A stretch of 26,336 bases of DNA from a virus: the UHGV virus genome UHGV-0273073. One strand, written 5' to 3'. The notes under the pieces were generated by a model. The model worked only from the letters and a program-made list of their open reading frames with translations, searched no databases and was not told where the DNA came from. Shown piece after piece: positions 1,572 to 20,567 of the stretch. The position numbers were made by a program, and so were the translations under genes. Positions within the stretch are counted from its first letter, which is position 1. Each line of letters opens with the position of its first letter.

Positions 1572-1933
1572 GGTAATATTAAATCGGAACATTTACATCG
1601 CGGAATGTAAAATTTAAATAAAAAGGACTCTTCCATGAGCCAAAATTCCTGAAATCTTAAGGGTAAGATAAAAGGTCTTAATCAGAATGACACGTTTTAT
1701 TAATAAATAAAGCTATTCTTTCATTGCTGTGTTTTTCTTTACAAAAGTAATCCTTGCTATGGGTGGTTAATCATGCGTTAATGGTGTTCTGGTTTGTTAC
1801 AAATTTATCTGAAGCAGTCATTGTTATAATTTTATTATTTGTACCTCTTGAGATTTCCTTGTTGGTTTTTCTCTCTGATATTTTTTTTCGGACCATTCTG
1901 CCCAAGGGCTAATTTCTTCAAAAGGTAATAATT

Positions 1934-2146
1934 ATGTCTAACAAAATGACTGGTTTAGTGAAATGGTTTAACCCTGAAAAAGGTTTTGGTTTCATCACGC
2001 CGAAAGATGGCAGCAAAGATGTGTTTGTCCATTTCTCAGCAATTCAGAGCAACGATTTCAAAACATTAACTGAGAATCAGGAAGTTGAATTTGGTATTGA
2101 GAACGGACCTAAAGGTCCTGCCGCTGTTCATGTTGTGGCGCTTTGA
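1934..2146 (+). CDS. CspA-family cold-shock protein (CspI/CspB-like prophage paralog)
   Basis: 70 aa, [14 protein letters not shown] and [11 protein letters not shown] motifs; preceded by a long AT-rich leader (1572..1933). Confidence 0.95.
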
Positions 2147-2345
2147 GGTAGACAATATTACAAACCATATTCACTTTAGATGCCCGTGTTGTCATGGTTC
2201 CCAGTATAGAACATCATCTTTTGATGTTTCTGACATGAATCCTTTCGGGGCAAAATGTATCTTTTGTAAATCAATGATGATTACATTTGATAATATTTCA
2301 CAATACTTAAATGCCAGCCGTCTGTCGTTGGATTTAAAAAAGTGA
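2130..2345 (+). CDS. Possible small zinc-ribbon protein (CPCC…C..C), start uncertain
   Basis: ORF track 2085..2345; internal Met at 2130; Cys pattern FRCPCCHG…AKCIFCK; immediately followed by an intrinsic terminator. Confidence 0.3.
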
Positions 2346-2993: not shown

Positions 2994-3144
2994 TGTATTC
3001 AATAATAAAATTTATCCATAAACCTCGTTTTTACGGGGTTTTGTTATATTTGAATGGTTCCGAATATCTAAATCACAATTGTTGATGGTTTTTATTAAAC
3101 CAATGCAGTCCGGCTCAGGAGTGAGAGAAGCCGGACGTTATGGT

Positions 3145-3570
3145 TTAGCGTGGTAAGATCTGTGTAGTTTTCTGGATGCTTTCAGTAAATAGTAATGAAT
3201 TATCAAAGGTATAGTAATATCTTTTTTGTTCGTGGATATTTGTAACCCACCGAAAAACTCCTGCTTTAGCAAGGTTTCTTCTGTATTCCTGAAATGTGAT
3301 CTCTCTGGATTTCAGCTTATTAGAGGTCGTTTCTATAAGATGCCTATCCTTTGAAAATTTGACAGACACAATGTTTTTTAGGCCCTTTAATAACACTGTA
3401 TTATCATTTTTTAATACAATATGAACATTCTCTGTGGCTAAATAGTAAATGTAATGTGAGACATTGTGACGTTTTAGCTCAGAATAAAACCATTGATAGT
3501 TTAAATCGTTTCGAACTTTATCAAATATTTGTTTAAAAATGACTACCTGATCCATAGATAAACCTTCCAT
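3145..3570 (-). CDS. DUF1398-like (YdfO/YbcV-like) prophage protein; likely start at second Met (3555)
   Basis: ORF track 3145..3570 (141 aa); family assignment from recollection and synteny with Qin-type prophages. Confidence 0.6.
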
Positions 3571-10190: not shown

Positions 10191-10466
10191 ATGTCTGTAT
10201 ATACAACTGCAGAATTACTGGCATCGACCCAGCATCACTTTAAGTTCGATCCGCTGTTTCTGCGCCTGTTTTTCCGTGAAACCTATCCTTTCACCACGGA
10301 AAAAGTCTATCTCTCACAAATTCCGGGACTGGTAAACATGGCGCTGTACGTTTCGCCGATTGTTTCCGGTGAGGTTATCCGATCCCGTGGCGGCTCCACC
10401 TCTGAATTTACGCCGGGTTATGTCAAACCCAAGCACTTAGCATGGCTTTCTGAGGCTTTCGTGTAG
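10191..10466 (+). pseudogene. E: Major capsid protein E, 5' fragment: codons 1-82 (10191..10436) fused to 9 island-encoded codons then stop
   Basis: MSVYTTAELLASTQHHFKFDPLFLRLFFRETYPFTTEKVYLSQIPGLVNMALYVSPIVSGEVIRSRGGSTSEFTPGYVKPKH is lambda gpE N-terminus; homology ends exactly after His82, followed by LAWLSEAFV*. Confidence 0.92.
10426..10435. repeat. Left copy of 10-bp direct repeat AACCCAAGCA (putative attL core)
   Basis: Identical 10-mer at 20558..20567; both copies sit at the breakpoints of E homology. Confidence 0.8.
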
Positions 10467-10563
10467 TTGCTGGTTTTTACACTTAATCTTTTGATAATAA
10501 AGAATAAGTTTATCTGGCGCTTTCACTGGATTTTCCTCGTTATCTGTGTGTTGCAATCATCTC

Positions 10564-10583
10564 TGTATTGCAGCTTGTATTGC
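10564..10583. repeat. Arm-type direct repeats TGTATTGCA / TGTATTGC at 12-bp phasing (left arm, between attL core and int)
   Basis: The same 9-mer occurs three times at 12-bp phasing on the right arm (20449..20481). Confidence 0.65.
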
Positions 10584-10598
10584 TTTTTGGGGCTAAAA

Positions 10599-11834
10599 AT
10601 GGCTGGCGAGAACAAACTGAGCGACAAAGCACTTAAAGGATATCTGGGGAAACCCAGAGAAAAGCAGATCACCATTGCTGATGGAAAGGGGCTTTCTATT
10701 CGTGTGAGTACCAAGGGGGCTGTGAGCTTTGTTTTCTTCTACAGGTTAGCAGGTGGCCGGGCTGCTCCGGTCTGGCTAACGTTGGGTAAATATCCTGATA
10801 TGTCACTCAAACAGGCAAGAGAAAAGCGCGACGAGTGCCGTGGTTGGTTGGCTGACAAACGTGATCCGCGTATCCAGATTAAGATTCAGGCTGAAGAACG
10901 CTTAAAGCCGGTCACAGTGGAGGATGCACTAAATTACTGGTATGAAAATTACTGTAAGGTGCGTCGTAAAACTCATGCTGTAACGCTTGGCAGATTTCGA
11001 AAGCATATCTTTCCCTATATCGGTCATTTGCCCGTAAATGACACTCACCTATATGAATGGCTGGACTGTTTTGACCGAATTAAACGTAATGCACCAGTTA
11101 TGGCGGCGTATGTTTTTTCTGACACTAAATTAGCTCTTCGTTTTTGTCGGGTACGCCAGTACGCGACGTGTGATGCTTTAAAGGATTTGCGCATGAGTGA
11201 TGTGGGGCAGATTGCAGGTAAGCGGGATCGGGTTCTGGATGAAGCCGAACTGGGCCAGCTCTGGAAGGCAATTTTTGTCGAGCCTGATTTAAAACTAATG
11301 TCTGAATACACGCGAAAAATGTTTGTGCTTTGTACAGTATTTGGATGTCGAATGAGTGAAGCCCGATTATCAGAATGGAGCGAATGGGATCTAGAAAGTT
11401 GGGTTTGGACTGTACCAAAAGAACACTCAAAAACCGGTGTTGAAATCGTCAGACCAGTACCTGAAATTCTACGACAGTGGGTAACGGATGTTCACGAAGA
11501 GACAAAACATACTGGTTATGTGCTGGGAAGTCTGCGAATTAGAGAAAGCGTAAGCAAGATTGGGGGGAAAATCGGTAAACGTTTGGGCCATGAAAAACAA
11601 TGGTCACTACACGACCTTAGAAGAACGCTATCTACTCATCTAAGTGATCTCGGTGTTGAATTTTATGTAGTAGAACAACTGTTAGGCCATGCGCTACCTG
11701 GCGTGGCAGGTGTTTACAACCGGAGTAAGTTTATGGCTAAAAAACTGGATGCTCTGGAACTCTGGACTACATATCTCAATAGCATCGCAGGTGCTGATTC
11801 AAAAGTGACAATCCTCAAACAAAAGGCTGGTTAA
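10599..11834 (+). CDS. int: Tyrosine site-specific integrase, P4 family (N-terminal arm-binding DUF4102-like domain)
   Basis: ATG at 10599 (MAGENKLSDKALKGYLGKP…); catalytic-region motifs HDLRRT and GVYNRSK (Tyr); the track's TTG-initiated extension 10467..10598 covers the arm repeats and is unlikely to be coding. Confidence 0.92.
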   Translation: MAGENKLSDKALKGYLGKPREKQITIADGKGLSIRVSTKGAVSFVFFYRLAGGRAAPVWLTLGKYPDMSLKQAREKRDECRGWLADKRDPRIQIKIQAEERLKPVTVEDALNYWYENYCKVRRKTHAVTLGRFRKHIFPYIGHLPVNDTHLYEWLDCFDRIKRNAPVMAAYVFSDTKLALRFCRVRQYATCDALKDLRMSDVGQIAGKRDRVLDEAELGQLWKAIFVEPDLKLMSEYTRKMFVLCTVFGCRMSEARLSEWSEWDLESWVWTVPKEHSKTGVEIVRPVPEILRQWVTDVHEETKHTGYVLGSLRIRESVSKIGGKIGKRLGHEKQWSLHDLRRTLSTHLSDLGVEFYVVEQLLGHALPGVAGVYNRSKFMAKKLDALELWTTYLNSIAGADSKVTILKQKAG

Positions 11835-11835
11835 C

Positions 11836-12066
11836 ATGAAAAAAATGGCAATTGTTGATAAAAAGGGTCTGGAGTACATTCCTAACATTGACCGAATGAT
11901 CCGTGAGAAAGAATGTCGGGAGCTAACCACTCTTGCGAACAGCACACGCTGGAAGCTGGAGAAGGAAGGAAAATTTCCTAAGCGGATCAAGATTGGTTCC
12001 ACTGCTGTTGCATATCGTCTTTCAGAAGTGCAGGCATGGATTCGAGGTGAGTGGGAAACAACTTAA
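11836..12066 (+). CDS. AlpA-family HTH regulator / excisionase-like protein
   Basis: 76 aa; core RELTTLANSTRWKLEKEGKFPKRIKIGSTAVAYRLSEVQAWI fits the AlpA/Xis pattern; directly downstream of int as in P4-like elements and PICIs. Confidence 0.75.
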   Translation: MKKMAIVDKKGLEYIPNIDRMIREKECRELTTLANSTRWKLEKEGKFPKRIKIGSTAVAYRLSEVQAWIRGEWETT

Positions 12067-12082
12067 CTATTAGGTGGGCATT

Positions 12083-12904
12083 GTGGCTATATTTCATTAT
12101 ACAGATCTTTTTGGTTTGAAAGGTATATTAGACTCTAATTCTTTATGGGCTACAAACATATATTTCTTAAATGATAAAGAGGAGTCTAACCATGGATGTG
12201 AATGCTTTCGAAATACAATTAAAATAGTTGATGACAATATCATTCCAAAAGATAAGAAAACTATTTTGCTCAAGTCTCTTGACATGTATGAGAAAGGGAG
12301 GTTACAAAAAGAAAAAGGGATTGATAAACATGTTTATAGCATCTCTTTTTGTAAGGAAAACGATAAGTTAAGTCAGTGGAGAGGTTACGGAAATAAACAG
12401 GGTGTTTGCATTGAGTTTGATGCGGATGAACTTGTGAGCTTTTCTCAAAATATTTATTTAAATTGTGTTGCACATGATGTTATATATTCAAATAATAACG
12501 ATGTTACTAAGATGAGTAAGGAGTTGGGGGCGTTTTTTTCTTGTAATGGTATTAATATTAAAGAAAAGAATGATCATTTTGTAACAATGGCCTCTACGTA
12601 TCAATTTATATCTAAATACATCCCATTTTTTAAACATCCTAGTTTTATCGAAGAAAATGAATTTAGATTGGTATTTACTCCGCGCATACTAATACCAGAT
12701 GTGCAATTCAGAATAAATAATAATGGTGTCATCCCTTATATCATCATTGGTAATAAAGATCATAGGAAGTTACCAATTAAAAGTATTACTATTGGCCCGA
12801 CAAACGATTATGATTTCATTGAGGCTGGTATAAAAATGTTCTTGGATTCAAAAGGATTTAGTTCAGTGGAAATTAAATCCTCATCAATTCCATTCAGGGG
12901 GTAA
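12083..12904 (+). CDS. Cargo protein of unknown function, AT-rich (possibly DUF2971-like)
   Basis: ORF track 12074..12904; GTG at 12083 preceded by AGGTGG; codon usage and AT content clearly differ from flanking genes; motifs IYFLNDKEE and YSISFCKENDKLSQWRGYGNKQGVCIEF. Confidence 0.7.
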   Translation: MAIFHYTDLFGLKGILDSNSLWATNIYFLNDKEESNHGCECFRNTIKIVDDNIIPKDKKTILLKSLDMYEKGRLQKEKGIDKHVYSISFCKENDKLSQWRGYGNKQGVCIEFDADELVSFSQNIYLNCVAHDVIYSNNNDVTKMSKELGAFFSCNGINIKEKNDHFVTMASTYQFISKYIPFFKHPSFIEENEFRLVFTPRILIPDVQFRINNNGVIPYIIIGNKDHRKLPIKSITIGPTNDYDFIEAGIKMFLDSKGFSSVEIKSSSIPFRG

Positions 12905-12949
12905 GGATTAACACTTTTAATCTATGATGTTATAAAAATGGTGGATAAA

Positions 12950-12969
12950 GGCGACCAGAATTGGTCGCC
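12950..12969. terminator. Hairpin between convergent cargo genes (possible bidirectional terminator)
   Basis: GGCGACCA-GAAT-TGGTCGCC, 8-bp perfect stem. Confidence 0.45.
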
Positions 12970-13035
12970 AATGTGAGTATATAGTTAGCCTTAATCAGAA
13001 TACGAGGTTGTCGACTGATAGGCAATGTGAACAGT

Positions 13036-13392
13036 TCAATATTTAGGTGGTTCAACAAGAGCGTTTATCATTGCTCTCAAATTATCGCGAACACTTATCC
13101 AAGTCTGTTCTGCTCGTTCTAACTCATCAGTGTACAACTTTAATGTTTTATCTATGCCATATGTGGCTATTAAATTTATAGCTTCTTGTAACTTTTCGGG
13201 ATTATTCCTTCTTGGGGGAGTGAATATACCACGGATTTTTCCGGTAATTAAAGCTTTACGGTGTCTACATAGAATACCTTTACTTCCTGCTGGACAATTG
13301 CAAGTCATGATTAGCGAGCCAGAATCGTTTGATACAGTGACTATGTATACATCCAAACTACTGCTACTTGTTGCGAAGAATTCGTATTTCAT
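13036..13392 (-). CDS. Small SWIM-type zinc-finger protein (CxC-x8-CxH)
   Basis: 118 aa; TCNCPAGSKGILCRHRKAL; strong AAGGAG Shine-Dalgarno 7 nt upstream of the ATG on the minus strand. Confidence 0.7.
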   Translation of the reverse strand: MKYEFFATSSSSLDVYIVTVSNDSGSLIMTCNCPAGSKGILCRHRKALITGKIRGIFTPPRRNNPEKLQEAINLIATYGIDKTLKLYTDELERAEQTWISVRDNLRAMINALVEPPKY

Positions 13393-13419
13393 GTGTTAGC
13401 TCCTTGACTTCAATTACTC

Positions 13420-13551
13420 TTATCCTTTTGGTTCAATACCGCGCCGTAGCAGCTCTTTGCGCCCTAATTCTTTAAGCCAGTTGGCTAGGCTTATGCCGTC
13501 GCTCTGCGCTTCTTTGTCGAATTGCTCTTTTAGCTCTGGAGAAATTCGCAT
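13420..13551 (-). CDS. Ribbon-helix-helix (CopG/Arc-like) protein, start uncertain
   Basis: MRISPELKEQFDKEAQSDGISLANWLKELGRKELLRRGIEPKG, C-terminal part of track ORF 13420..13734; 27 nt upstream of the SWIM gene on the same strand. Confidence 0.55.
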   Translation of the reverse strand: MRISPELKEQFDKEAQSDGISLANWLKELGRKELLRRGIEPKG

Positions 13552-13946
13552 TCTGAATTGTGGAGATTGCCCATCACCCTTAGGACTTTTATCGCGTTTG
13601 ATTGTTGACAAGTGACCACCTATTGAATTAGCCTTTTTACTGTTAGGTGACCACCTTAACACGGAGGCACTTAAAAAAGCAAAGCCCGAAGGCGCTAGGA
13701 ACACCAACGGGCTTCTAACCACCAACGATAGCAACAGTATCGAGATAGCTATGAGAAATCATACCACACACCCGCAAGGGCGGGACCCGCACAACCTGAA
13801 TAAATACATCTGGCGTTTTATCGCCCTGAGCACCGCACAACCACGCGTAATACACATCGAGGCCGCCAGCGGACAGGAAGCCCGCCAACAATCCCCAACT
13901 GGCTGCGTGATGATATTCGCCGCCCGTATTCGTCAGGAGGTATGCC

Positions 13947-14132
13947 GTGCTTAAAACCTTCCGTGTATTTGCTCGTGCTGTTAACCCACGAGGCCACACA
14001 ATTGGTATCGCTCAGAACGTGAAGGCTGTTAATGTTCAGACGGCTATTGCTGCGGTGAGAAGCGAATCATCAGAATATGGCTTATCACAAGTCATTATTT
14101 CAGCAGTGTATGAATTAAAAGAGGTGCATTAA
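13947..14132 (+). CDS. Hypothetical small protein, first gene of the replication operon
   Basis: GTG start with perfect AGGAGG 6 nt upstream; stop overlaps the next start. Confidence 0.6.
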   Translation: MLKTFRVFARAVNPRGHTIGIAQNVKAVNVQTAIAAVRSESSEYGLSQVIISAVYELKEVH

Positions 14133-14323
14133 TGCAGGAAATCACATTACACGAAGCCGCTGAACGTGCGCACCAGACAGAGATTATTTGCCGCCTTCTT
14201 GAGGTATACCCTGATAAATTAAATGATGCTGATATATCCGCATTAGCTAGTCTTCTGGCAAGACTGTCAGGAAGTGTTGCACTGTGGTTAATTGATCAGA
14301 GGGTAGAACGTTATGGAGAATAA
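14132..14323 (+). CDS. Hypothetical small protein (operon member)
   Basis: Translationally coupled to flanking ORFs. Confidence 0.55.
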   Translation: MQEITLHEAAERAHQTEIICRLLEVYPDKLNDADISALASLLARLSGSVALWLIDQRVERYGE

Positions 14324-14555
14324 TAAACTTTCGCTTGCAGAGGTGTCGGAATCCATGAACAGTGCAATAAGCTATAATAATTCGGCAATTGAAATTGCAA
14401 ACTTGTGGTTTCAATTGCTGTCAAACAACGAAAGAGATGAATCAACGGCAAGACTTATATTTGCTATTTCTGAATTGCTGGATATTTCCACCAGCAAGAT
14501 AAACAAAGCATTAGAAAAAATTCACGAATTAAAACACCACACAAACGGAATTTAA
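14313..14555 (+). CDS. Hypothetical small protein (operon member)
   Basis: Overlaps the previous ORF; AT-rich. Confidence 0.5.
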   Translation: MENNKLSLAEVSESMNSAISYNNSAIEIANLWFQLLSNNERDESTARLIFAISELLDISTSKINKALEKIHELKHHTNGI

Positions 14556-14559
14556 TTAT

Positions 14560-14859
14560 ATGGGAATGAAAAATACTGGTGTTAATGCCAGCGGCCCCGC
14601 TCGACCTGAATTTATGAACGGCGATATTTACCGCGATAAATACGGCGGCACGGTAACGATTAAAGGCGTGGCAGAACGGCGCATCACTTACCGCCGTGAG
14701 GGGTATAGCTATGACTGCGTGATGCCTGTTTATCAGTTCCGGCGTGATTTTTCCCTGGTATATGCCGCACCCCGCAGTAAGCCCACCAGCAGGGAAAAAG
14801 CGCGGGGAAACATCCAGAAAATGAAAAGCATGATTAACGCATTCAGGGGCAAAAAATGA
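14560..14859 (+). CDS. Hypothetical protein upstream of primase (operon member)
   Basis: 99 aa; stop overlaps the primase ATG (ATGA at 14856). Confidence 0.6.
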   Translation: MGMKNTGVNASGPARPEFMNGDIYRDKYGGTVTIKGVAERRITYRREGYSYDCVMPVYQFRRDFSLVYAAPRSKPTSREKARGNIQKMKSMINAFRGKK

Positions 14860-16607
14860 AACTGGCACCGAACTTAAAAAAACAGCCACGCGACAGACTG
14901 ACAGAGGTAATCATCTTTGCAGGTAGTGATGCGTGGAGCCATGCGAAAGAGTGGCAGGAATGGGCGGGTAAACATATTGCCGCCGACGATGTGCCGCCTG
15001 TCGTGCTGGCTGATGAGCAACTGAAAAACATCACCGATTACCGGATCATTGATGAAGATCGTCAGTGTGTGCGTGTTTACCGCGCAGGACATATCACAGA
15101 GCACAGCATGACGCAGATTGTTACGTTACTGGCTGTGGCTGGAGTGAAGACCGTACACGAATACGCGGGGATTACTGACACCAGCCCCGTGGATTTATCC
15201 GACCAGTTGCCGCGACTCAAAGAGGAATGCGAGCGTGGGGAAAGCCTGGTGCTTAATCTTCCGACGAAGCAAAAGGAGCAACTTTCACAGATGGCAGACA
15301 GTGAGCGGGCACAACTACTTGCCGATCGCTTTGATGGTGTTTGTGTTCATGCAGAAAGTGAAATCGTCCACGTATGGCGCGGCGGGGTATGGTGTCCGGT
15401 CAGCACAATGGAGCTGAGCCGCGAAATGGTGGCGATCTATTCAGAGCACAGGGCCACGTTCAGCAAACGCGTAATCAATAACGCCGTGGAAGCGTTAAAA
15501 GTTATTGCCGCCCCCATGGGGGAGCCGTCCGGTGATTTGCTACCGTTCACTAATGGTGTGCTTAATCTGAAAACGGGGGAATTTTCTCCGCACTCGCCGG
15601 AGCACTGGAGCACCACGCACAATGGTATTGAGTACACGCCACCAGTAGCAGGGGAAAACATCCGCGATAATGCGCCAAATTTCCATAAATGGCTTGAACA
15701 TGCTGCAGGAAAAGACCCGCGCAAGATGATGCGTATATGTGCCGCGTTATACATGATTATGGCGAACCGCTACGACTGGCAGATGTTCATTGAGGCCACC
15801 GGAGACGGGGGAAGCGGTAAGAGTACATTTACCCATATTGCCACCCTGCTTGCAGGCAAACAGAACACCGTAAGCGCAGAGATGACATCACTCGATGATG
15901 CAGGAGGGCGCGCGCAGGTTGTCGTGAGTCGTCTTATCGTCCTTGCCGATCAGCCGAAATATACGGGGGAAGGCACGGGCATCAAGAAAATCACGGGAGG
16001 CGATCCCGTTGAAATCAATCCGAAATATGAGAAGCGATTCACGACGATAATAAGGGCGGTGGTACTGGCAACCAATAACGACCCGATGATCTTTACCGAA
16101 CGGGCCGGAGGTGTGTCACGCCGTCGGGTGATTTTCCGGTTCGACAACATTGTAAGGGAGGACGAAAAAGACAAGGAATTACCGGAAAAGATAGCGGCAG
16201 AAATCCCCGTAATTATCCGCCGCTTGCTGGCTAACTTTGCTGACCCTGAAAAGGCAAGGGCTTTACTACTGGAACAGCGTGACGGTGATGAAGCTCTGGC
16301 AATAAAGCAGCAAACGGATCCAGTTGTTGAGCTTTGCGCGGCGCTTGAGTTTCTGGATGAAGCTCGTGGGCTAATGATGGGCGGTGGTGGTGACTCCGTG
16401 AAGTACACGACCAGAAACAGCCTTTACCGTGTCTATATGGCCTTCATGGCATACACAGGAAAGGGGAAATGTTTGAGCGTGAATGAGTTCGGAAAGGCTA
16501 TGAGGTCAGCGGCGAAAGTTTACGGATATGAATATATTACGCGAAAAGTTAAGGGAGTCACGCAGACCAACGCAACGACTACTGATGATTGCGATGCGTT
16601 TTTATAA
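14856..16607 (+). CDS. Replication primase/helicase (P4-alpha/PICI pri-rep-like, P-loop NTPase)
   Basis: 583 aa; Walker A GDGGSGKST; Walker B-like VLADQ; immediately followed by the iteron array. Confidence 0.85.
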   Translation: MKLAPNLKKQPRDRLTEVIIFAGSDAWSHAKEWQEWAGKHIAADDVPPVVLADEQLKNITDYRIIDEDRQCVRVYRAGHITEHSMTQIVTLLAVAGVKTVHEYAGITDTSPVDLSDQLPRLKEECERGESLVLNLPTKQKEQLSQMADSERAQLLADRFDGVCVHAESEIVHVWRGGVWCPVSTMELSREMVAIYSEHRATFSKRVINNAVEALKVIAAPMGEPSGDLLPFTNGVLNLKTGEFSPHSPEHWSTTHNGIEYTPPVAGENIRDNAPNFHKWLEHAAGKDPRKMMRICAALYMIMANRYDWQMFIEATGDGGSGKSTFTHIATLLAGKQNTVSAEMTSLDDAGGRAQVVVSRLIVLADQPKYTGEGTGIKKITGGDPVEINPKYEKRFTTIIRAVVLATNNDPMIFTERAGGVSRRRVIFRFDNIVREDEKDKELPEKIAAEIPVIIRRLLANFADPEKARALLLEQRDGDEALAIKQQTDPVVELCAALEFLDEARGLMMGGGGDSVKYTTRNSLYRVYMAFMAYTGKGKCLSVNEFGKAMRSAAKVYGYEYITRKVKGVTQTNATTTDDCDAFL

Positions 16608-16620
16608 AAAATGGCAATGG

Positions 16621-16850
16621 TTATCTACCTTGTCTACCTGACTGAAAGAAAATACTTTTATTTCAATGTATTAATGCAGGTAGATAACTATTTTTCACTG
16701 TCTACCTGTTATCTACCTTATCTACCCATTTTTGTAGACAGGTAAGGAGACGGGTAGAGATGAGGTAGACAGCTATTTGGGGCTGTCTACCTCCCTGAAA
16801 CCCGCGCCATTACTGGCCTGATAACTAATCAGGTAGACAAGGTAGACAAG
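16621..16850. repeat. Iteron-type replication origin: at least 12 copies of GTCTACC / GGTAGAC in both orientations plus an AT-rich spacer
   Basis: Copies at about 16623, 16632, 16678, 16701, 16711, 16720, 16734, 16753, 16764, 16785, 16831, 16841; AT-rich 16641..16676. Confidence 0.8.
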
Positions 16851-16896
16851 GTGGTGGTGCACAAAAAACTTTTTAAACGAGGGGGTAAAAATAAAA

Positions 16897-17154
16897 ATGC
16901 ACACATCAGGAAAACTGAACAAACATATAAAGCCACATTACCGCGCCCTTGATATGGCTGAACACTGGCTAAGGGTGGCGATTAAGGCAATAGACCGCAA
17001 CGCCGGGGAAGGATACGCGAAAGCACATCCCGAACTGATAAGCGCATTCATGACAACGGCGGCTGCAAACTTTGCCACGCTGACCGAACGGGAGATTGCC
17101 GAAGCGGAGGAAGTGACAACCATCAATATTAAGTCCGGAGAGCAGGCAGCATGA
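16897..17154 (+). CDS. Hypothetical 85-aa protein
   Basis: Stop overlaps the ssb start. Confidence 0.5.
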   Translation: MHTSGKLNKHIKPHYRALDMAEHWLRVAIKAIDRNAGEGYAKAHPELISAFMTTAAANFATLTEREIAEAEEVTTINIKSGEQAA

Positions 17155-17600
17155 CGGCGCAAATAGCAGCTTACGGGCGGCTGGTGGACGCCCCGCAGAC
17201 AAAACAGACCAGCAAGGGCACCCCCATGACGCTGGCGCGTATGGCGGTATCACTGCCCTGCAGCCAGTCGGATGACGGTCAGGCGACGATGTGGTTATCT
17301 GTTCTGGCGTTTGGCAGACAAGCCGACGCGCTGGCAAAGCATCACAAAGGCGAACTCCTGAGCGTGGCGGGTAACATGCAGGTGAGTCAGTGGACTGGAC
17401 AGAACGGTGAAACGCGGCAGGGCTGGCAGGTTATCGCAGACAGCGTAATCAGTGCGCGAACGGTGCGACCGGGCGGCAAAAAAGGCCAACAGGGGCAGGC
17501 TACTGACGCACTGAACAGAGCAAAACAACAGGCAGATCAGCAAGGAAGCCATCCACCAGTGGGAGATAATGAGCAATGGGGAGATGATATTCCGTTTTAA
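17151..17600 (+). CDS. ssb: Single-stranded DNA-binding protein
   Basis: 149 aa; OB-fold core and acidic C-terminal tail ending DDIPF, as in E. coli SSB. Confidence 0.9.
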   Translation: MTAQIAAYGRLVDAPQTKQTSKGTPMTLARMAVSLPCSQSDDGQATMWLSVLAFGRQADALAKHHKGELLSVAGNMQVSQWTGQNGETRQGWQVIADSVISARTVRPGGKKGQQGQATDALNRAKQQADQQGSHPPVGDNEQWGDDIPF

Positions 17601-17618
17601 ATATTGCCAATAAAAAAG

Positions 17619-17643
17619 GCCGGAAAAAAATAAATTTTCCGGC
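17619..17643 (+). other. Hairpin (9-bp stem GCCGGAAAA / TTTTCCGGC) between ssb and the capsid-homolog gene
   Basis: Perfect inverted repeat with 7-nt loop AAATAAA; no downstream T-run. Confidence 0.4.
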
Positions 17644-17817
17644 ATGCTACATAAATCCAGACCAAAGGGAGTGAAGATATTAACACTAATTATCCGCGCT
17701 GAAGTTGTCATCCCAAAACTTTATACAACATTGCACTCGGTTGCATGTATTCGCATGACAAATATCGGTGATAGCATATATCCACAATTATTTTTAATGA
17801 ATGCAAAGAGGATGCGT

Positions 17818-18858
17818 ATGGTTGATTTATATTCGCCTACCCAGCTTGTACAGGTGGTTAATGCTGTAGATGTACAAAAACAACTAAATGCGTTGTTTAC
17901 CAGTTTGTTTTTTACTCGCTCGGTAATGTTTGAATCGCGCGATATTATTCTTGATACAATCGACGATCCAAATATCCCAATTGCAGCGTTTTGTTCTCCT
18001 ATGGTGGGTAGTAAAGTTTCACGTGACGAAGGGTACGAATCAAAAACAATTCGTCCAGGCTATATGAAGCCGAAAAGCAGCATTGATCCAAATAAGTTAG
18101 CTGTGCGCCCTGCTGGTGTATCACCTGAGCAATACAATGCTTTTGGAGCGCGTAATATTAAAGTTAAACAGGCGATTGTAAATCAGGCTAAAGCTATTCG
18201 TGCACGTATTGAATGGCTTGCCGTTCAGGCAATCACAACGGGGAAAAATATCATTGAGGGCGATGGTATTGAACGTTATGAGCTGGACTGGAATATTAAA
18301 CCACAAAATATCATCACTCAGTCTGGCGGTGCTGAGTGGTCAGGTAAGGATAAAGAAACTTTTGATCCAAATGATGATATTGAGAGCTACGCAGAATTTA
18401 GTGAGGGCGTCACTAATATCATCATTATGGGCGGTAATGTATGGAAGAAATACCGTTCATTCAGAGCGATAAAAGAGGCTCTGGATACCCGTCGTGGTTC
18501 TAATTCCGAACTGGAAACGGCCCTTAAAGACCTTGGTGATTCGGTGAGTTTTAAAGGGTATATGGGCGATGTTGCGATTGTTGTATACAGCGGGCGTTAT
18601 ACCGACGAGGACGGAACTGAAAAACATTTCCTTGATCCTGATTTGATGGTGCTTGGCAATACGGCTCTTCAGGGGATTGTCGCCTATGGCGGTATTCAGG
18701 ATCCGGAGCTAATCCGAATGGGGCTGACTAAAGCCGAACTTGCACCGAAAAACTATATTGTGCCTGGTGATCCGGCTATTGAATATGTGCAGACACATTC
18801 AGCACCACAGCCAATACCGGCCCGCATCAATCGTTTTGTTACCGTTCGCATTGGCTAA
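17818..18858 (+). CDS. Island-encoded major capsid protein homolog (divergent gpE-like)
   Basis: 346 aa from ATG 17818 (AGAGG 6 nt upstream), inside track ORF 17644..18858. Blocks ITQSGGAEWSGKDKETFDPNDDIESYA and DTRRGSNSELETALKDLGDSVSFKGYMGDVAIVVYSG align with ITQSGGTEWSKRDKSTYDPTDDIEAYA and DTRRGSHSELETAVKDLGKAVSYKGMYGDVAIVVYSG of the resident E (20569..21348). Confidence 0.9.
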   Translation: MVDLYSPTQLVQVVNAVDVQKQLNALFTSLFFTRSVMFESRDIILDTIDDPNIPIAAFCSPMVGSKVSRDEGYESKTIRPGYMKPKSSIDPNKLAVRPAGVSPEQYNAFGARNIKVKQAIVNQAKAIRARIEWLAVQAITTGKNIIEGDGIERYELDWNIKPQNIITQSGGAEWSGKDKETFDPNDDIESYAEFSEGVTNIIIMGGNVWKKYRSFRAIKEALDTRRGSNSELETALKDLGDSVSFKGYMGDVAIVVYSGRYTDEDGTEKHFLDPDLMVLGNTALQGIVAYGGIQDPELIRMGLTKAELAPKNYIVPGDPAIEYVQTHSAPQPIPARINRFVTVRIG

Positions 18859-18867
18859 GGGGGAGCA

Positions 18868-19209
18868 ATGGCTACTCATTACACTGAACTCATGGCTGGC
18901 ACTGAAGCACTGGTGACTACGCTGGGGATATTTTCAGCTAATAAAGGGGTAATTCCTGCATTTACGCCACTGATGCAGGAAGATGCAACAGGTGCACTGG
19001 TGGTATGGGATGGTTCGAGCGTAGGTAAAGCGGTTTATGTTTCCGCTGTACAAATCGACACCGCGAAAAAAACACAGGCTCAGGTCTATAAGACAGGTGT
19101 CTTAAATGTTGATGCTCTGAACTGGCCTGAGTCTGTAAAAGAACTGTCAGTAAAGATTGCAGCGTTTGTTGGCTCAGGTATTTCTGTTCAGCCGCTGGCT
19201 CGTGTGTAA
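18868..19209 (+). CDS. Island-encoded head decoration protein homolog (divergent gpD-like)
   Basis: 113 aa; TPLMQEDATGALVVWDGSS…YKTGVLNVDALNWPES…AAFVGSGISV aligns with resident [20 protein letters not shown]…[16 protein letters not shown]…[11 protein letters not shown]. Confidence 0.8.
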   Translation: MATHYTELMAGTEALVTTLGIFSANKGVIPAFTPLMQEDATGALVVWDGSSVGKAVYVSAVQIDTAKKTQAQVYKTGVLNVDALNWPESVKELSVKIAAFVGSGISVQPLARV

Positions 19210-19220
19210 AGGGGGATACA

Positions 19221-19604
19221 ATGCAAAATGATTACAATGACCTTAAGCCAATTGCCGAAATGATGTACCCGAATCCAGCTGTAGAGGAATTAAAAGCTAT
19301 CGCTGACAAAATGTGTTTAAGCGAGCGCCTTGTTGATATGAATCAGGTGATGGAAATTACAACCCTGAGTCGGCGTACACTGCTAAACCTTGAGGCTAGT
19401 GGAGAGTTCCCGGAGCGTGTGCAGGTTACGGAAGGGCGTAAGGCCTGGTATTTAAGTGAAGTGATCGACTGGATAAATAATATTCCTCGCGCTTCTGAAT
19501 ATTGCCGCGTACCTGTCCCAAAAAAGCCAGATGCGGCGCTATGCCTCAAGATTGAGCGTGTACGCCGCAATGCACGGGATGGTCGCTATAAGCTGATTGG
19601 TTGA
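19221..19604 (+). CDS. HTH protein (AlpA/excisionase-like fold with N-terminal extension) adjacent to the cos-like site
   Basis: 127 aa; MNQVMEITTLSRRTLLNLEASGEFPERVQVTEGRKAWYLSEVIDWI. Confidence 0.6.
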   Translation: MQNDYNDLKPIAEMMYPNPAVEELKAIADKMCLSERLVDMNQVMEITTLSRRTLLNLEASGEFPERVQVTEGRKAWYLSEVIDWINNIPRASEYCRVPVPKKPDAALCLKIERVRRNARDGRYKLIG

Positions 19605-19629
19605 TGAAATTAGGGCCCGCTCTGGCTGG

Positions 19630-19838
19630 CGGGTCCTTTCCGGCGATCTGACAGGCTACGGGGCGTCAGGCGCGCGGATTTTCGCTATTTATGAAAATTT
19701 TCCGGTTTAAGGCGTTTCCGTTCTTCTTCGTCGTAACTTAATGTTTTTATTTAAAATACCCCCTGAAAAGAAAGGAAACGACAGGTGCTGAAAGCGAGCT
19801 TTTTGGCCTCTGTCGTTTCCTTTCTCGTTTTTTGTTCA
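19630..19838 (+). promoter_or_regulatory. Island cos-like packaging site: cosQ/cosB nearly identical to the prophage cos (4016..4223), divergent cosN-equivalent 12-mer GGGCGTCAGGCG at 19661..19672
   Basis: By-eye alignment: about 150 bp of the cosB arm differ by only a few substitutions; the cosN 12-mer differs at 5 of 12 positions; no terminase genes in the island. Confidence 0.85.
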
Positions 19839-20185
19839 ACAATTGCGCGGTAGCAACTCGCCTTTCTGCTGCTGGAACTTATCCGGCACGTTTCCAGTGA
19901 TATCTGTCAGACAGCAGGCAAACAGGAGACAACGCAGTCGGACAGCACGACCGCTGAAAATTACGCGCGTGTGGTGCTTGAGGTTATGCGCCGTGACGGT
20001 ATCGAGCTTAACGGCGTGGATATGTGCAACATACGCACCAGAGTTCTGGAGTTGTTGCCATATCGTCGCCGTTCCATGTAGCGAAGGGAGAGCGCGAAAA
20101 ACACTTACCAGTGGAAGAAGCAGGAGCGGTTACGGCGGTAACTTGCTGATATTCCCGATAACGCAAAATTGCGTTGGCTGGCAGA

Positions 20186-20404
20186 GTGCAAATTTGCACG
20201 ATGGTCTAACCCATTGATTCTTTCGAAAATCACCATTGGGGGATAACGGGGGAATAAGCCTAACCCATTGATTCTTCCACAATCCTCAATTTGAGGAGAG
20301 CGGAATTATTACATGGCTGGATCAGGACTCCTTGAATTCAAGGAGTTCTCCTGTGTGAAAATGAAATTACCCAAGTTGGTGGGTGAGTTGCAGATCTGCA
20401 ACTC
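20186..20404. promoter_or_regulatory. Cluster of four palindromes in the island right arm: 20186..20199, 20284..20296, 20328..20345, 20385..20404
   Basis: GTGCAAATTTGCAC (14 bp, perfect), CCTCAATTTGAGG (imperfect), CTCCTTGAATTCAAGGAG (18 bp, perfect), GAGTTGCAGATCTGCAACTC (20 bp, perfect). Confidence 0.6.
20206..20276. repeat. Two copies of the 17-mer CTAACCCATTGATTCTT (20206..20222, 20260..20276), resembling the att core (AACCCA…)
   Basis: Exact direct repeat; shares AACCCA with the core AACCCAAGCA. Confidence 0.6.
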
Positions 20405-20448
20405 GGCTATGAAACTTAATAATCGAACAGCATGTAAATTCATTTCTG

Positions 20449-20481
20449 TGTATTGCAGCATGTATTGCAGCATGTATTGCA
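20449..20481. repeat. Three phased copies of TGTATTGCA (12-bp period), right-arm arm-type sites
   Basis: 20449, 20461, 20473; the same motif occurs twice on the left arm (10564..10583). Confidence 0.65.
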
Positions 20482-20557
20482 ACATAGTCATTCTGGTAGA
20501 GATTATGCTCTATTTTTCCTCTTATATCATTCACATACTTACGTCATTGACTCATGT

Positions 20558-20567
20558 AACCCAAGCA
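20558..20567. repeat. Right copy of 10-bp direct repeat AACCCAAGCA (putative attR core)
   Basis: Identical to 10426..10435; E homology resumes 1 nt after it. Confidence 0.8.

Follow-up and report, generated by a model that had tools for sequence, protein, structure and literature searches.

Small open reading frames ahead of the replicase as members of a six-gene early operon in a satellite resembling helper-embedded phage-inducible chromosomal islands

Four small open reading frames (ORFs) stand directly ahead of the replicase gene in the virus genome UHGV-0273073, and the question they raise is whether they encode real proteins and, if so, whether any of them acts on the helper phage of the satellite that carries them. 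The whole stretch of 26,336 nt is referred to here as the window, and the feature under study occupies positions 13947-14859. The initial annotation had placed ORFs of 61, 63, 80 and 99 amino acids (aa) in this interval, with coordinates and lengths that proved exact, and had likened their position to that of epsilon, the helper derepressor of satellite P4. The four ORFs are the middle of a six-gene early operon that runs from an Icd-like gene through ORF1, ORF2, ORF3 and the DUF4222 gene to the replicase. The explanation that is favoured, although with modest confidence, is that they are coding genes in the chained early operon of a helper-embedded phage-inducible chromosomal island (PICI), in which DUF4222 serves as a replicase accessory and ORF1-3 as small modulators. 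The six genes are as follows.

13751..13954, + strand: Icd-like ORF, 67 aa, which opens the operon and matches NF033153
13947..14132, + strand: ORF1, 61 aa, GTG start; small accessory protein that comes first in the variable slot
14132..14323, + strand: ORF2, 63 aa, ATG start; accessory small protein
14313..14555, + strand: ORF3, 80 aa; fast-evolving, semi-conserved small protein, usually directly 5' of DUF4222
14560..14859, + strand: ORF4 (DUF4222), 99 aa; core gene of the cassette
14856..16607, + strand: replicase, 583 aa; D5_N, DUF5906 (superfamily 3 (SF3) helicase) and Pox_D5 C-terminal domain (Pfam)

Start and stop codons in this chain overlap or nearly abut without a break from 13751 to 14856. 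Because the stop codon of the Icd-like gene falls 8 nt inside ORF1 (an 8-nt overlap), ORF1 is not the first gene; the 61-aa ORF had been taken as the beginning of the chain, and the 67-aa Icd-like gene that precedes it at 13751-13954 had been missed. The AGGAGG ribosome-binding site reported for ORF1 is indeed present, at 13935-13940 within the Icd-like coding sequence, and the GTG of ORF1 begins 6 nt downstream of it. ORF1 and ORF2 have 1 nt in common in the sequence TAATG (ORF1 stop, ORF2 ATG), ORF2 and ORF3 overlap by 11 nt, and ORF4 and the replicase overlap by 4 nt (ATGA). The overlapping stop and start codons described earlier are thus found at these three junctions, but not between ORF3 and ORF4, which are separated by a 4-nt gap. 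Shine-Dalgarno sequences are good for ORF1, ORF2 and the replicase individually and weak for ORF4. A search of the + strand between 13947 and 14859 yielded nothing that resembles a promoter or a terminator.

Judged by family membership and substitution pattern, all four ORFs are genuine protein-coding genes under purifying selection. Each has a full-length match in PHROG (phrog_3672 for ORF1, phrog_1478 for ORF2, phrog_5796 for ORF3 and phrog_285 for ORF4), with E-values from 5e-26 to 3e-45. The alignments of ORF1 (E=2.7e-45), ORF2 (E=4.1e-34) and ORF3 (E=4.7e-26, with phrog_2196 also matched) cover essentially the whole protein, and none of the families 3672, 1478 and 5796 has an assigned function. 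In comparisons with loci at 75-98% nucleotide identity, dN/dS amounts to 0.2-0.3 for the Icd-like gene, ORF2, ORF3 and ORF4 (individually 0.18-0.30 for ORF2, 0.21 for ORF3 and about 0.2 for the Icd-like gene). As ORF1 is too conserved within E. coli for dN/dS, an E. albertii homologue with 48% aa identity was used instead, and pN/pS was 0.44 in frame against 1.4 and 0.9 in the shifted frames. The same genes are annotated by RefSeq in related E. coli genomes. That the four are chance open frames rather than genes, as the shortness of all four proteins and the very few homologues of ORF1 might suggest, can hardly be correct in view of the family matches, the purifying selection and the frame-specific substitutions; gene order and junctions are moreover kept across loci as distant as 24-35% identity, so that the comparative data already contradict such a view.

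The arrangement of the operon is widely distributed. A sensitive blastn search with 13740-14860 matched 1,914 of 5,426 complete E. coli genomes; query coverage reached at least 80% in 152 of those, while most matches consist of the Icd-like gene alone or DUF4222 alone. Eleven loci were read, some from E. coli, Shigella and E. albertii, together with four metagenomic contigs in which DUF4222 is 24-35% identical to ORF4; the distant DUF4222 contexts are L010, L013, L015 and L017, and the closer comparison drew on L001 and L003-L008. A constant frame is found in these loci, in which the Icd-like gene, between one and four small ORFs, DUF4222 and the replicase follow one another, preceded by a small ribbon-helix-helix gene that is encoded on the other strand. 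The stop codon of DUF4222 and the start codon of the replicase form ATGA in 11 of 11 loci, whatever the helicase type, and the replicase cores include D5_N/DUF5906 (P4-alpha-like), DUF927, RepA/AAA_25 and an alpha-like Zn-finger primase.

The slot between the Icd-like gene and DUF4222 varies, by contrast with this frame. Homologues of ORF1 occur in four of the 11 loci, the ORF2 family likewise in four, and the ORF3 family directly 5' of DUF4222 in seven, with unrelated small ORFs occupying the slot in the remaining loci. ORF1 and ORF2 appear to be optional, and ORF3 appears to belong to a semi-conserved, fast-evolving family. Between the window and L001, which is 98% identical, ORF1 and ORF4 retain 98% and 95% identity, respectively, whereas all of ORF3 and the C-terminus of ORF2 are replaced by a divergent allele (25-31% identity). 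The presence of such an ORF3 allele between neighbours of 95-98% identity indicates a recombination mosaic.

ORF4 is the most readily classified of the four. Its residues 16-67 score 83.2 bits (E=9e-24) with the Pfam family DUF4222 (PF13973), for which the cut-off is 27, and it is also a member of phrog_285; among the matches listed, 120 cluster representatives from E. coli and Shigella share 75-91% identity with it. The protein has a confidently predicted domain, and its putative fold is a small SH3/Tudor-like barrel, to which a basic helix at the C-terminus and a conserved tail at the N-terminus are added. Among E. coli blastn matches taken as a spread sample, 27 rows extend as far as the query's 3' end, and each of them has a replicase gene under the match, comprising 10 of the 'primase family', 5 with DUF927 and 12 of the RepA type. 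In one database protein (P0211), the DUF4222 domain is fused to an alpha-like Zn-finger N-terminus. What the present analysis adds for DUF4222 is the predicted SH3/Tudor-like fold together with the invariant, ATGA-coupled position before satellite replicases.

The replicase itself is 41% identical to P4 alpha over residues 321-762 of the latter only, that is, over the helicase and C-terminal part. Neither the Pfam search nor the comparison with P4 alpha revealed a Zn-finger/TOPRIM primase domain; of the 'primase/helicase' named in the initial annotation, the helicase is therefore retained and the primase is not. The N-terminal part of about 100-135 aa (window 14856-15260, corresponding to residues 1-135; MKxAPNxK...EVIIFAGSDAW...) belongs to no Pfam family and is common to PICI replicases with D5_N/SF3, DUF927 and RepA cores. 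Since one N-terminal module is shared by three helicase cores, these replicases are chimeras in which a single module is combined with swapped helicases.

On the reading favoured here, DUF4222 would assist replication initiation as an accessory subunit whose amount is kept in constant proportion to that of the replicase, and it may link the primase-less helicase to a partner that is either from the host or bound at the origin. Control of expression would act at the promoter, through AlpA, the divergent ribbon-helix-helix protein and helper late read-through into the embedded satellite; expression would then be relayed along the gene chain by coupled translation. ORF1-3 are inferred to be exchangeable small protein-binding modulators or effectors that are expressed with the replicase, and their targets, whether in the helper or in the host, likely differ between satellites.

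The sequences upstream of the Icd-like gene are consistent with such control, and comprise three features.

13605..13656, + strand: candidate promoter/operator region, with TTGACA at 13605-13610 and repeats around the presumed -10
13682..13714, + strand: leader hairpin, AAGCCCG, a 19-nt loop and CGGGCTT
13420..13611, - strand: divergent ribbon-helix-helix (Arc/HicB-like) gene, matching phrog_228 'Arc-like repressor' (4e-6) and Pfam HicB (1.4e-3)

Two exact copies of GTGACCACCT, at 13612-13621 and 13647-13656 and 35 bp apart, flank the presumed -10. The hexamer TTGAC(A/G) is invariant in five loci, and each locus has its own pair of repeats at these two sites, about 10-12 bp long and in many cases palindromic; L003, for instance, contains TGTGCGCACA twice and L004 contains GTGTTyAACACC twice. 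The repeat pair looks like operators for an element-specific dimeric binder, for which the divergent ribbon-helix-helix protein is the obvious candidate and AlpA another. The base pairs of the leader hairpin are kept through two-sided changes, as determined with RNAalifold in five loci. An immunity RNA of the C4/CI/isrK type upstream of the Icd-like gene was considered and rejected: no match to Rfam C4 (RF01695) or isrK (RF01394) was obtained at E<=10 in 12900-15000, and none at the gathering score in the window, L001 or L003-L006, although both RNAs were recovered from the P4 positive control.

The divergent ribbon-helix-helix gene probably encodes 63 aa from a TTG at 13611, or at minimum 43 aa from an ATG at 13551. 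The TTG start overlaps the -35 hexamer of the opposing promoter, and the protein is a candidate repressor of the operon. A homologue is encoded by a 64-aa gene (3093-3287) in the distant metagenomic PICI L010, and genes of the YlcI/YnfO family hold the place of the ribbon-helix-helix gene in L003-L006. The near-identical RefSeq locus gives this stretch as a pseudogene on the other strand, which is probably a mis-annotation of the gene. The YlcI/YnfO family is also present in the lambdoid helper late region (ynfO, L001 4226-4459, compared with the satellite gene at L003 4609-4806), and cross-talk between helper and satellite copies is conceivable.

The element that carries the operon is an island of about 10.1 kb (window 10426-20567) between 10-bp direct repeats AACCCAAGCA at 10426 and 20558, and a near-identical RefSeq locus (98% identity) has one half of a split prophage major capsid gene on each side of the island. 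By gene content and insertion site, it is a helper-embedded PICI of the published 'Eco567.11capE' type, and it interrupts a lambdoid prophage's major capsid gene. Eco567.11capE is an 11-kb satellite that lies inside a lambdoid helper capsid gene in the same orientation as that gene and has a 10-bp block of identity at its two ends (Tommasini, Mageeney & Williams 2023, PMC10111431), and it has been proposed that the helper's late transcription and its replication simply run on, passively, into the satellite embedded in it (PMC10111431). In EcCICFT073, the model PICI of Gram-negative bacteria, alpA is induced by the helper, and AlpA then activates the downstream early genes (Fillol-Salom et al. 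2018, PMC6092414). The genes of the island outside the operon and its upstream region are listed below.

ends at 11834: int, at the left end and pointing inward
11836..12066, + strand: alpA (PF05930, 3e-15), activator of Gram-negative PICI early genes (PMC6092414)
12074-12904: DUF2971 gene, in the accessory zone that separates alpA from the operon
13036-13392: SWIM zinc-finger gene, in the same accessory zone
17151-17600: SSB gene
17644-18858: the island's own lambda-E-like capsid gene
18868-19209: decoration gene
19221-19604: second AlpA/HTH_17-like gene, 127 aa (PF05930, 7.6e-9), after the decoration gene

A terS-like region is also carried by the island, and the helix-turn-helix gene at 19221-19604 occupies what is presumably the position at which E. 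coli PICIs encode the packaging-redirection protein Rpp. The element resembles Eco567.11capE and EcCICFT073 in its size (about 10-11 kb), in the int and alpA genes at its left end, both of which point inward, in a P4-alpha-related replicase accompanied by SSB, in a late zone with its own lambda-E-like capsid and decoration genes, and in its location in, and co-orientation with, a lambdoid major capsid gene with 10-bp identity at the ends. It differs from them in the accessory zone, which here contains the DUF2971 and SWIM genes, whereas theirs (the 'Bro' zone) contains Bro-N proteins. The DUF2971 and SWIM proteins gave weak PADLOC matches to the candidate defence families PDC-S31 (1e-5) and PDC-S62 (5e-5), and on this basis may represent anti-phage cargo. 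Outside the island, in the helper prophage, an Rfam match to the cspA thermoregulator (window 1788-2173, 110 bits) represents the leader of cspI as in Qin-like prophages; it has no connection with the operon.

Between 76 and 152 complete E. coli genomes contain near-identical copies of the genes, under the annotation 'hypothetical' or 'DUF4222'. This is not a new system, because the element has already been described and the gene copies are already in E. coli genomes; the early operon is real but ordinary for a known satellite type. The small ORFs between the accessory zone and the replicase are not characterised in PMC10111431, PMC6092414 or the other literature searched. The value of the locus is organisational, in that it defines the early-operon frame of Gram-negative PICIs and separates core from exchangeable genes.

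The positional analogy with P4 that had been drawn for the four ORFs is exact. The left operon of P4 runs in the order vis, eta/kil (with the CI RNA), epsilon, orf151, orf106 and alpha; the genes of the window follow this order and orientation, and here too four small ORFs separate the regulator from the replicase. The flanking genes are homologous: phrog_1743 is matched both by the Icd-like ORF and by the C-terminal part of the P4 'cI 1-137' ORF (eta/kil region), and the helicase part of the replicase is homologous to alpha (41% identity). The junction at which the second gene begins has the same composition in both elements, namely a Shine-Dalgarno sequence, a GTG and an 8-nt overlap with the upstream stop (P4 GGAGGTGTCCCGTGCGTAA, window AGGAGGTATGCCGTGCTTAA); owing to this conserved junction, the start of ORF1 is the nucleotide homologous to the start of epsilon. 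The slot is thus positionally homologous to the site where P4 keeps its helper derepressor.

The contents of the slot are different. No homologue of epsilon (PF25738), orf151 or orf106 (DUF5375) could be detected among ORF1-4, alpha has the Zn-finger/TOPRIM primase that the replicase here does not have, and the CI (C4-family) and isrK-like RNAs of P4 were not detected here. P4 epsilon matches Pfam PF25738 'Derepression' (9e-51) and phrog_10016; ORF1-4 match neither of them, and the sole Pfam match among the four is that of ORF4 to DUF4222. A blastp comparison of the ORFs with epsilon returned nothing, and hhalign of the ORF3 alignment against epsilon gave E=0.64. Accordingly, none of the ORFs is accepted as a homologue of P4 epsilon, orf151 or orf106. 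For DUF4222 and the N-terminus of orf151 in particular, the similarity is borderline and homology is unproven: blastp gave E=0.02, and hhalign gave E=0.002 but a probability of 14%; a broader DUF4222 hidden Markov model aligned to another part of orf151 at E of about 0.1, and orf151 is not among the top 50 BFVD structural matches for DUF4222. The anatomical part of the proposed analogy consequently stands, while the further step to helper derepression finds no sequence support in these family, blastp and hhalign comparisons.

The immI operon of phage P1 provides a further point of comparison. It consists of the c4 RNA, icd and ant, and the antirepressor gene ant is coupled to icd. As in immI, a small ORF of the Icd family opens the operon of the window and the downstream genes are translationally coupled; unlike in immI, neither a C4 RNA nor an Ant-type domain was detected, and the operon ends in a replicase rather than an antirepressor.

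These comparisons bear on the alternatives to the favoured reading. One of ORF1-3, most plausibly ORF1, could be a functional analogue of P4 epsilon or P1 Ant that binds the helper repressor and derepresses the helper, or that couples replication to helper induction. Such a role would suit an ORF1 start at the epsilon-homologous nucleotide, after an Icd/Kil-like ORF and with the same 8-nt overlap and Shine-Dalgarno context; it would also suit the identity of the icd-coupled P1 gene as the antirepressor ant, and a slot that varies between satellites as helper-specific interactions would. However, family, pairwise and profile comparisons give no homology to epsilon, the ORFs contain no Pfam antirepressor domain, and most of the related satellites do not have ORF1. 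In addition, the satellite lies inside a helper late gene and would be transcribed and replicated in cis after helper induction (PMC10111431), while control in EcCICFT073 runs from the helper through AlpA to the satellite (PMC6092414). An epsilon-like role seems less necessary because the satellite is already within the helper's late operon, and with position as its sole support, by analogy, such a derepressor is considered unlikely. Another possibility, which deserves more weight but is still doubtful, is that ORF1-3, and possibly DUF4222, are interference or takeover factors rather than accessories of replication or derepressors, that is, small inhibitors of the helper (its replication, late expression or packaging) or of a host function, which would favour the satellite. 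It has also been considered that the small ORFs are translated spacers that relay ribosomes and prevent Rho-dependent polarity, such that replicase synthesis would depend on translation of the Icd-like gene and the peptides themselves would be unimportant. The unbroken start/stop chain from 13751 to 14856, the structured and conserved leader of the Icd-like gene, and the control of read-through by eta translation in P4 (summarised in PMC10111431) are compatible with this idea. It is nevertheless very improbable, as dN/dS of 0.2-0.3 and conserved motifs reveal selection on protein sequence, the DUF4222 domain is confidently predicted, and ORF1, ORF2 and the replicase have good Shine-Dalgarno sites of their own.

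Several observations count against the favoured reading of DUF4222 as a replicase accessory and ORF1-3 as modulators. DUF4222 accompanies at least four unrelated replicase N-termini or cores, which argues against a specific contact with one replicase domain, and these varied partners would fit equally well with a non-replication role, such as regulation or interference, that merely shares the operon. DUF4222 receives only passing mentions in the literature searched. Coupling between ORF3 and ORF4 is assumed, given the weak Shine-Dalgarno sequence of ORF4 and the gap at that junction. The structural model of ORF1 is unstable over five AlphaFold2 runs, the promoter/operator assignment rests on five to six aligned loci, and every function proposed for these families is putative.

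A more specific proposal can be derived from the predicted fold of DUF4222. The Tudor-like barrel is the fold by which UvrD, PcrA, CarD and Mfd grip RNA polymerase. DUF4222 might therefore be a satellite-specific initiation adaptor, in which the barrel would tether the primase-less replicase to RNA polymerase or another host machine, so that transcription would prime or license replication (in this case the helper's late transcription, entering the island from outside); the position between the Icd-like gene and DUF4222, occupied by epsilon in P4, would then be a general cartridge for swapped small helper-specific effectors. This proposal is speculative, and its chances of being right are small. 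The separation of core from exchangeable genes yields two short lists, one naming DUF4222 as a candidate to affect replication, the other naming ORF1-3 and their allelic replacements as candidates for helper- or host-specific effects. In this sense, the ORFs are plausible candidates in the sensing and manipulation of helpers by Gram-negative PICIs. An arrangement of two tandem DUF4222 genes (69 and 94 aa) occurs before a RepA-type replicase in the distant PICI L017 (3778-4285).

The individual small proteins differ in the breadth of their families. Sequence searches found no relatives with solved structures for ORF1-4, including a profile search for ORF3, and the PADLOC defence-system search gave no match for any of the four. 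Homologues of ORF1 form only about 10 clusters among 5.8 billion proteins, all from E. coli. Its AlphaFold2 model has a beta-beta-alpha-beta fold, with predicted local distance difference test scores that span 44-93 over the five models (best 93). The top structural matches of this model are ribosomal eL20/LX proteins; they were judged to reflect a generic small fold, and, with variable model confidence, a function for ORF1 was not assigned from them. ORF2 has homologues in L001, L003 and L005 (52-89% identity), and its N-terminus shows weak tblastn similarity to early-region hypothetical genes of Klebsiella temperate phages. Relatives of ORF3 lie just upstream of DUF4222 in L001, L003, L004, L005, L007 and L010 with 23-60% identity, and share the motif W-x3-L-x2-(N/D)E(R)D.

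The Icd-like ORF matches NF033153 ('host cell division inhibitor Icd-like') with E=1.7e-17, as well as phrog_6196 and phrog_1743, and is 84-98% identical in L001 and L003-L006. In a tblastn search of 50,697 phage records, ORF1, ORF3 and ORF4 had no match, which indicates that they are satellite genes rather than phage genes. The Icd-like ORF matched one record in the same set, a 16.5 kb 'induced prophage' that is itself probably a satellite.

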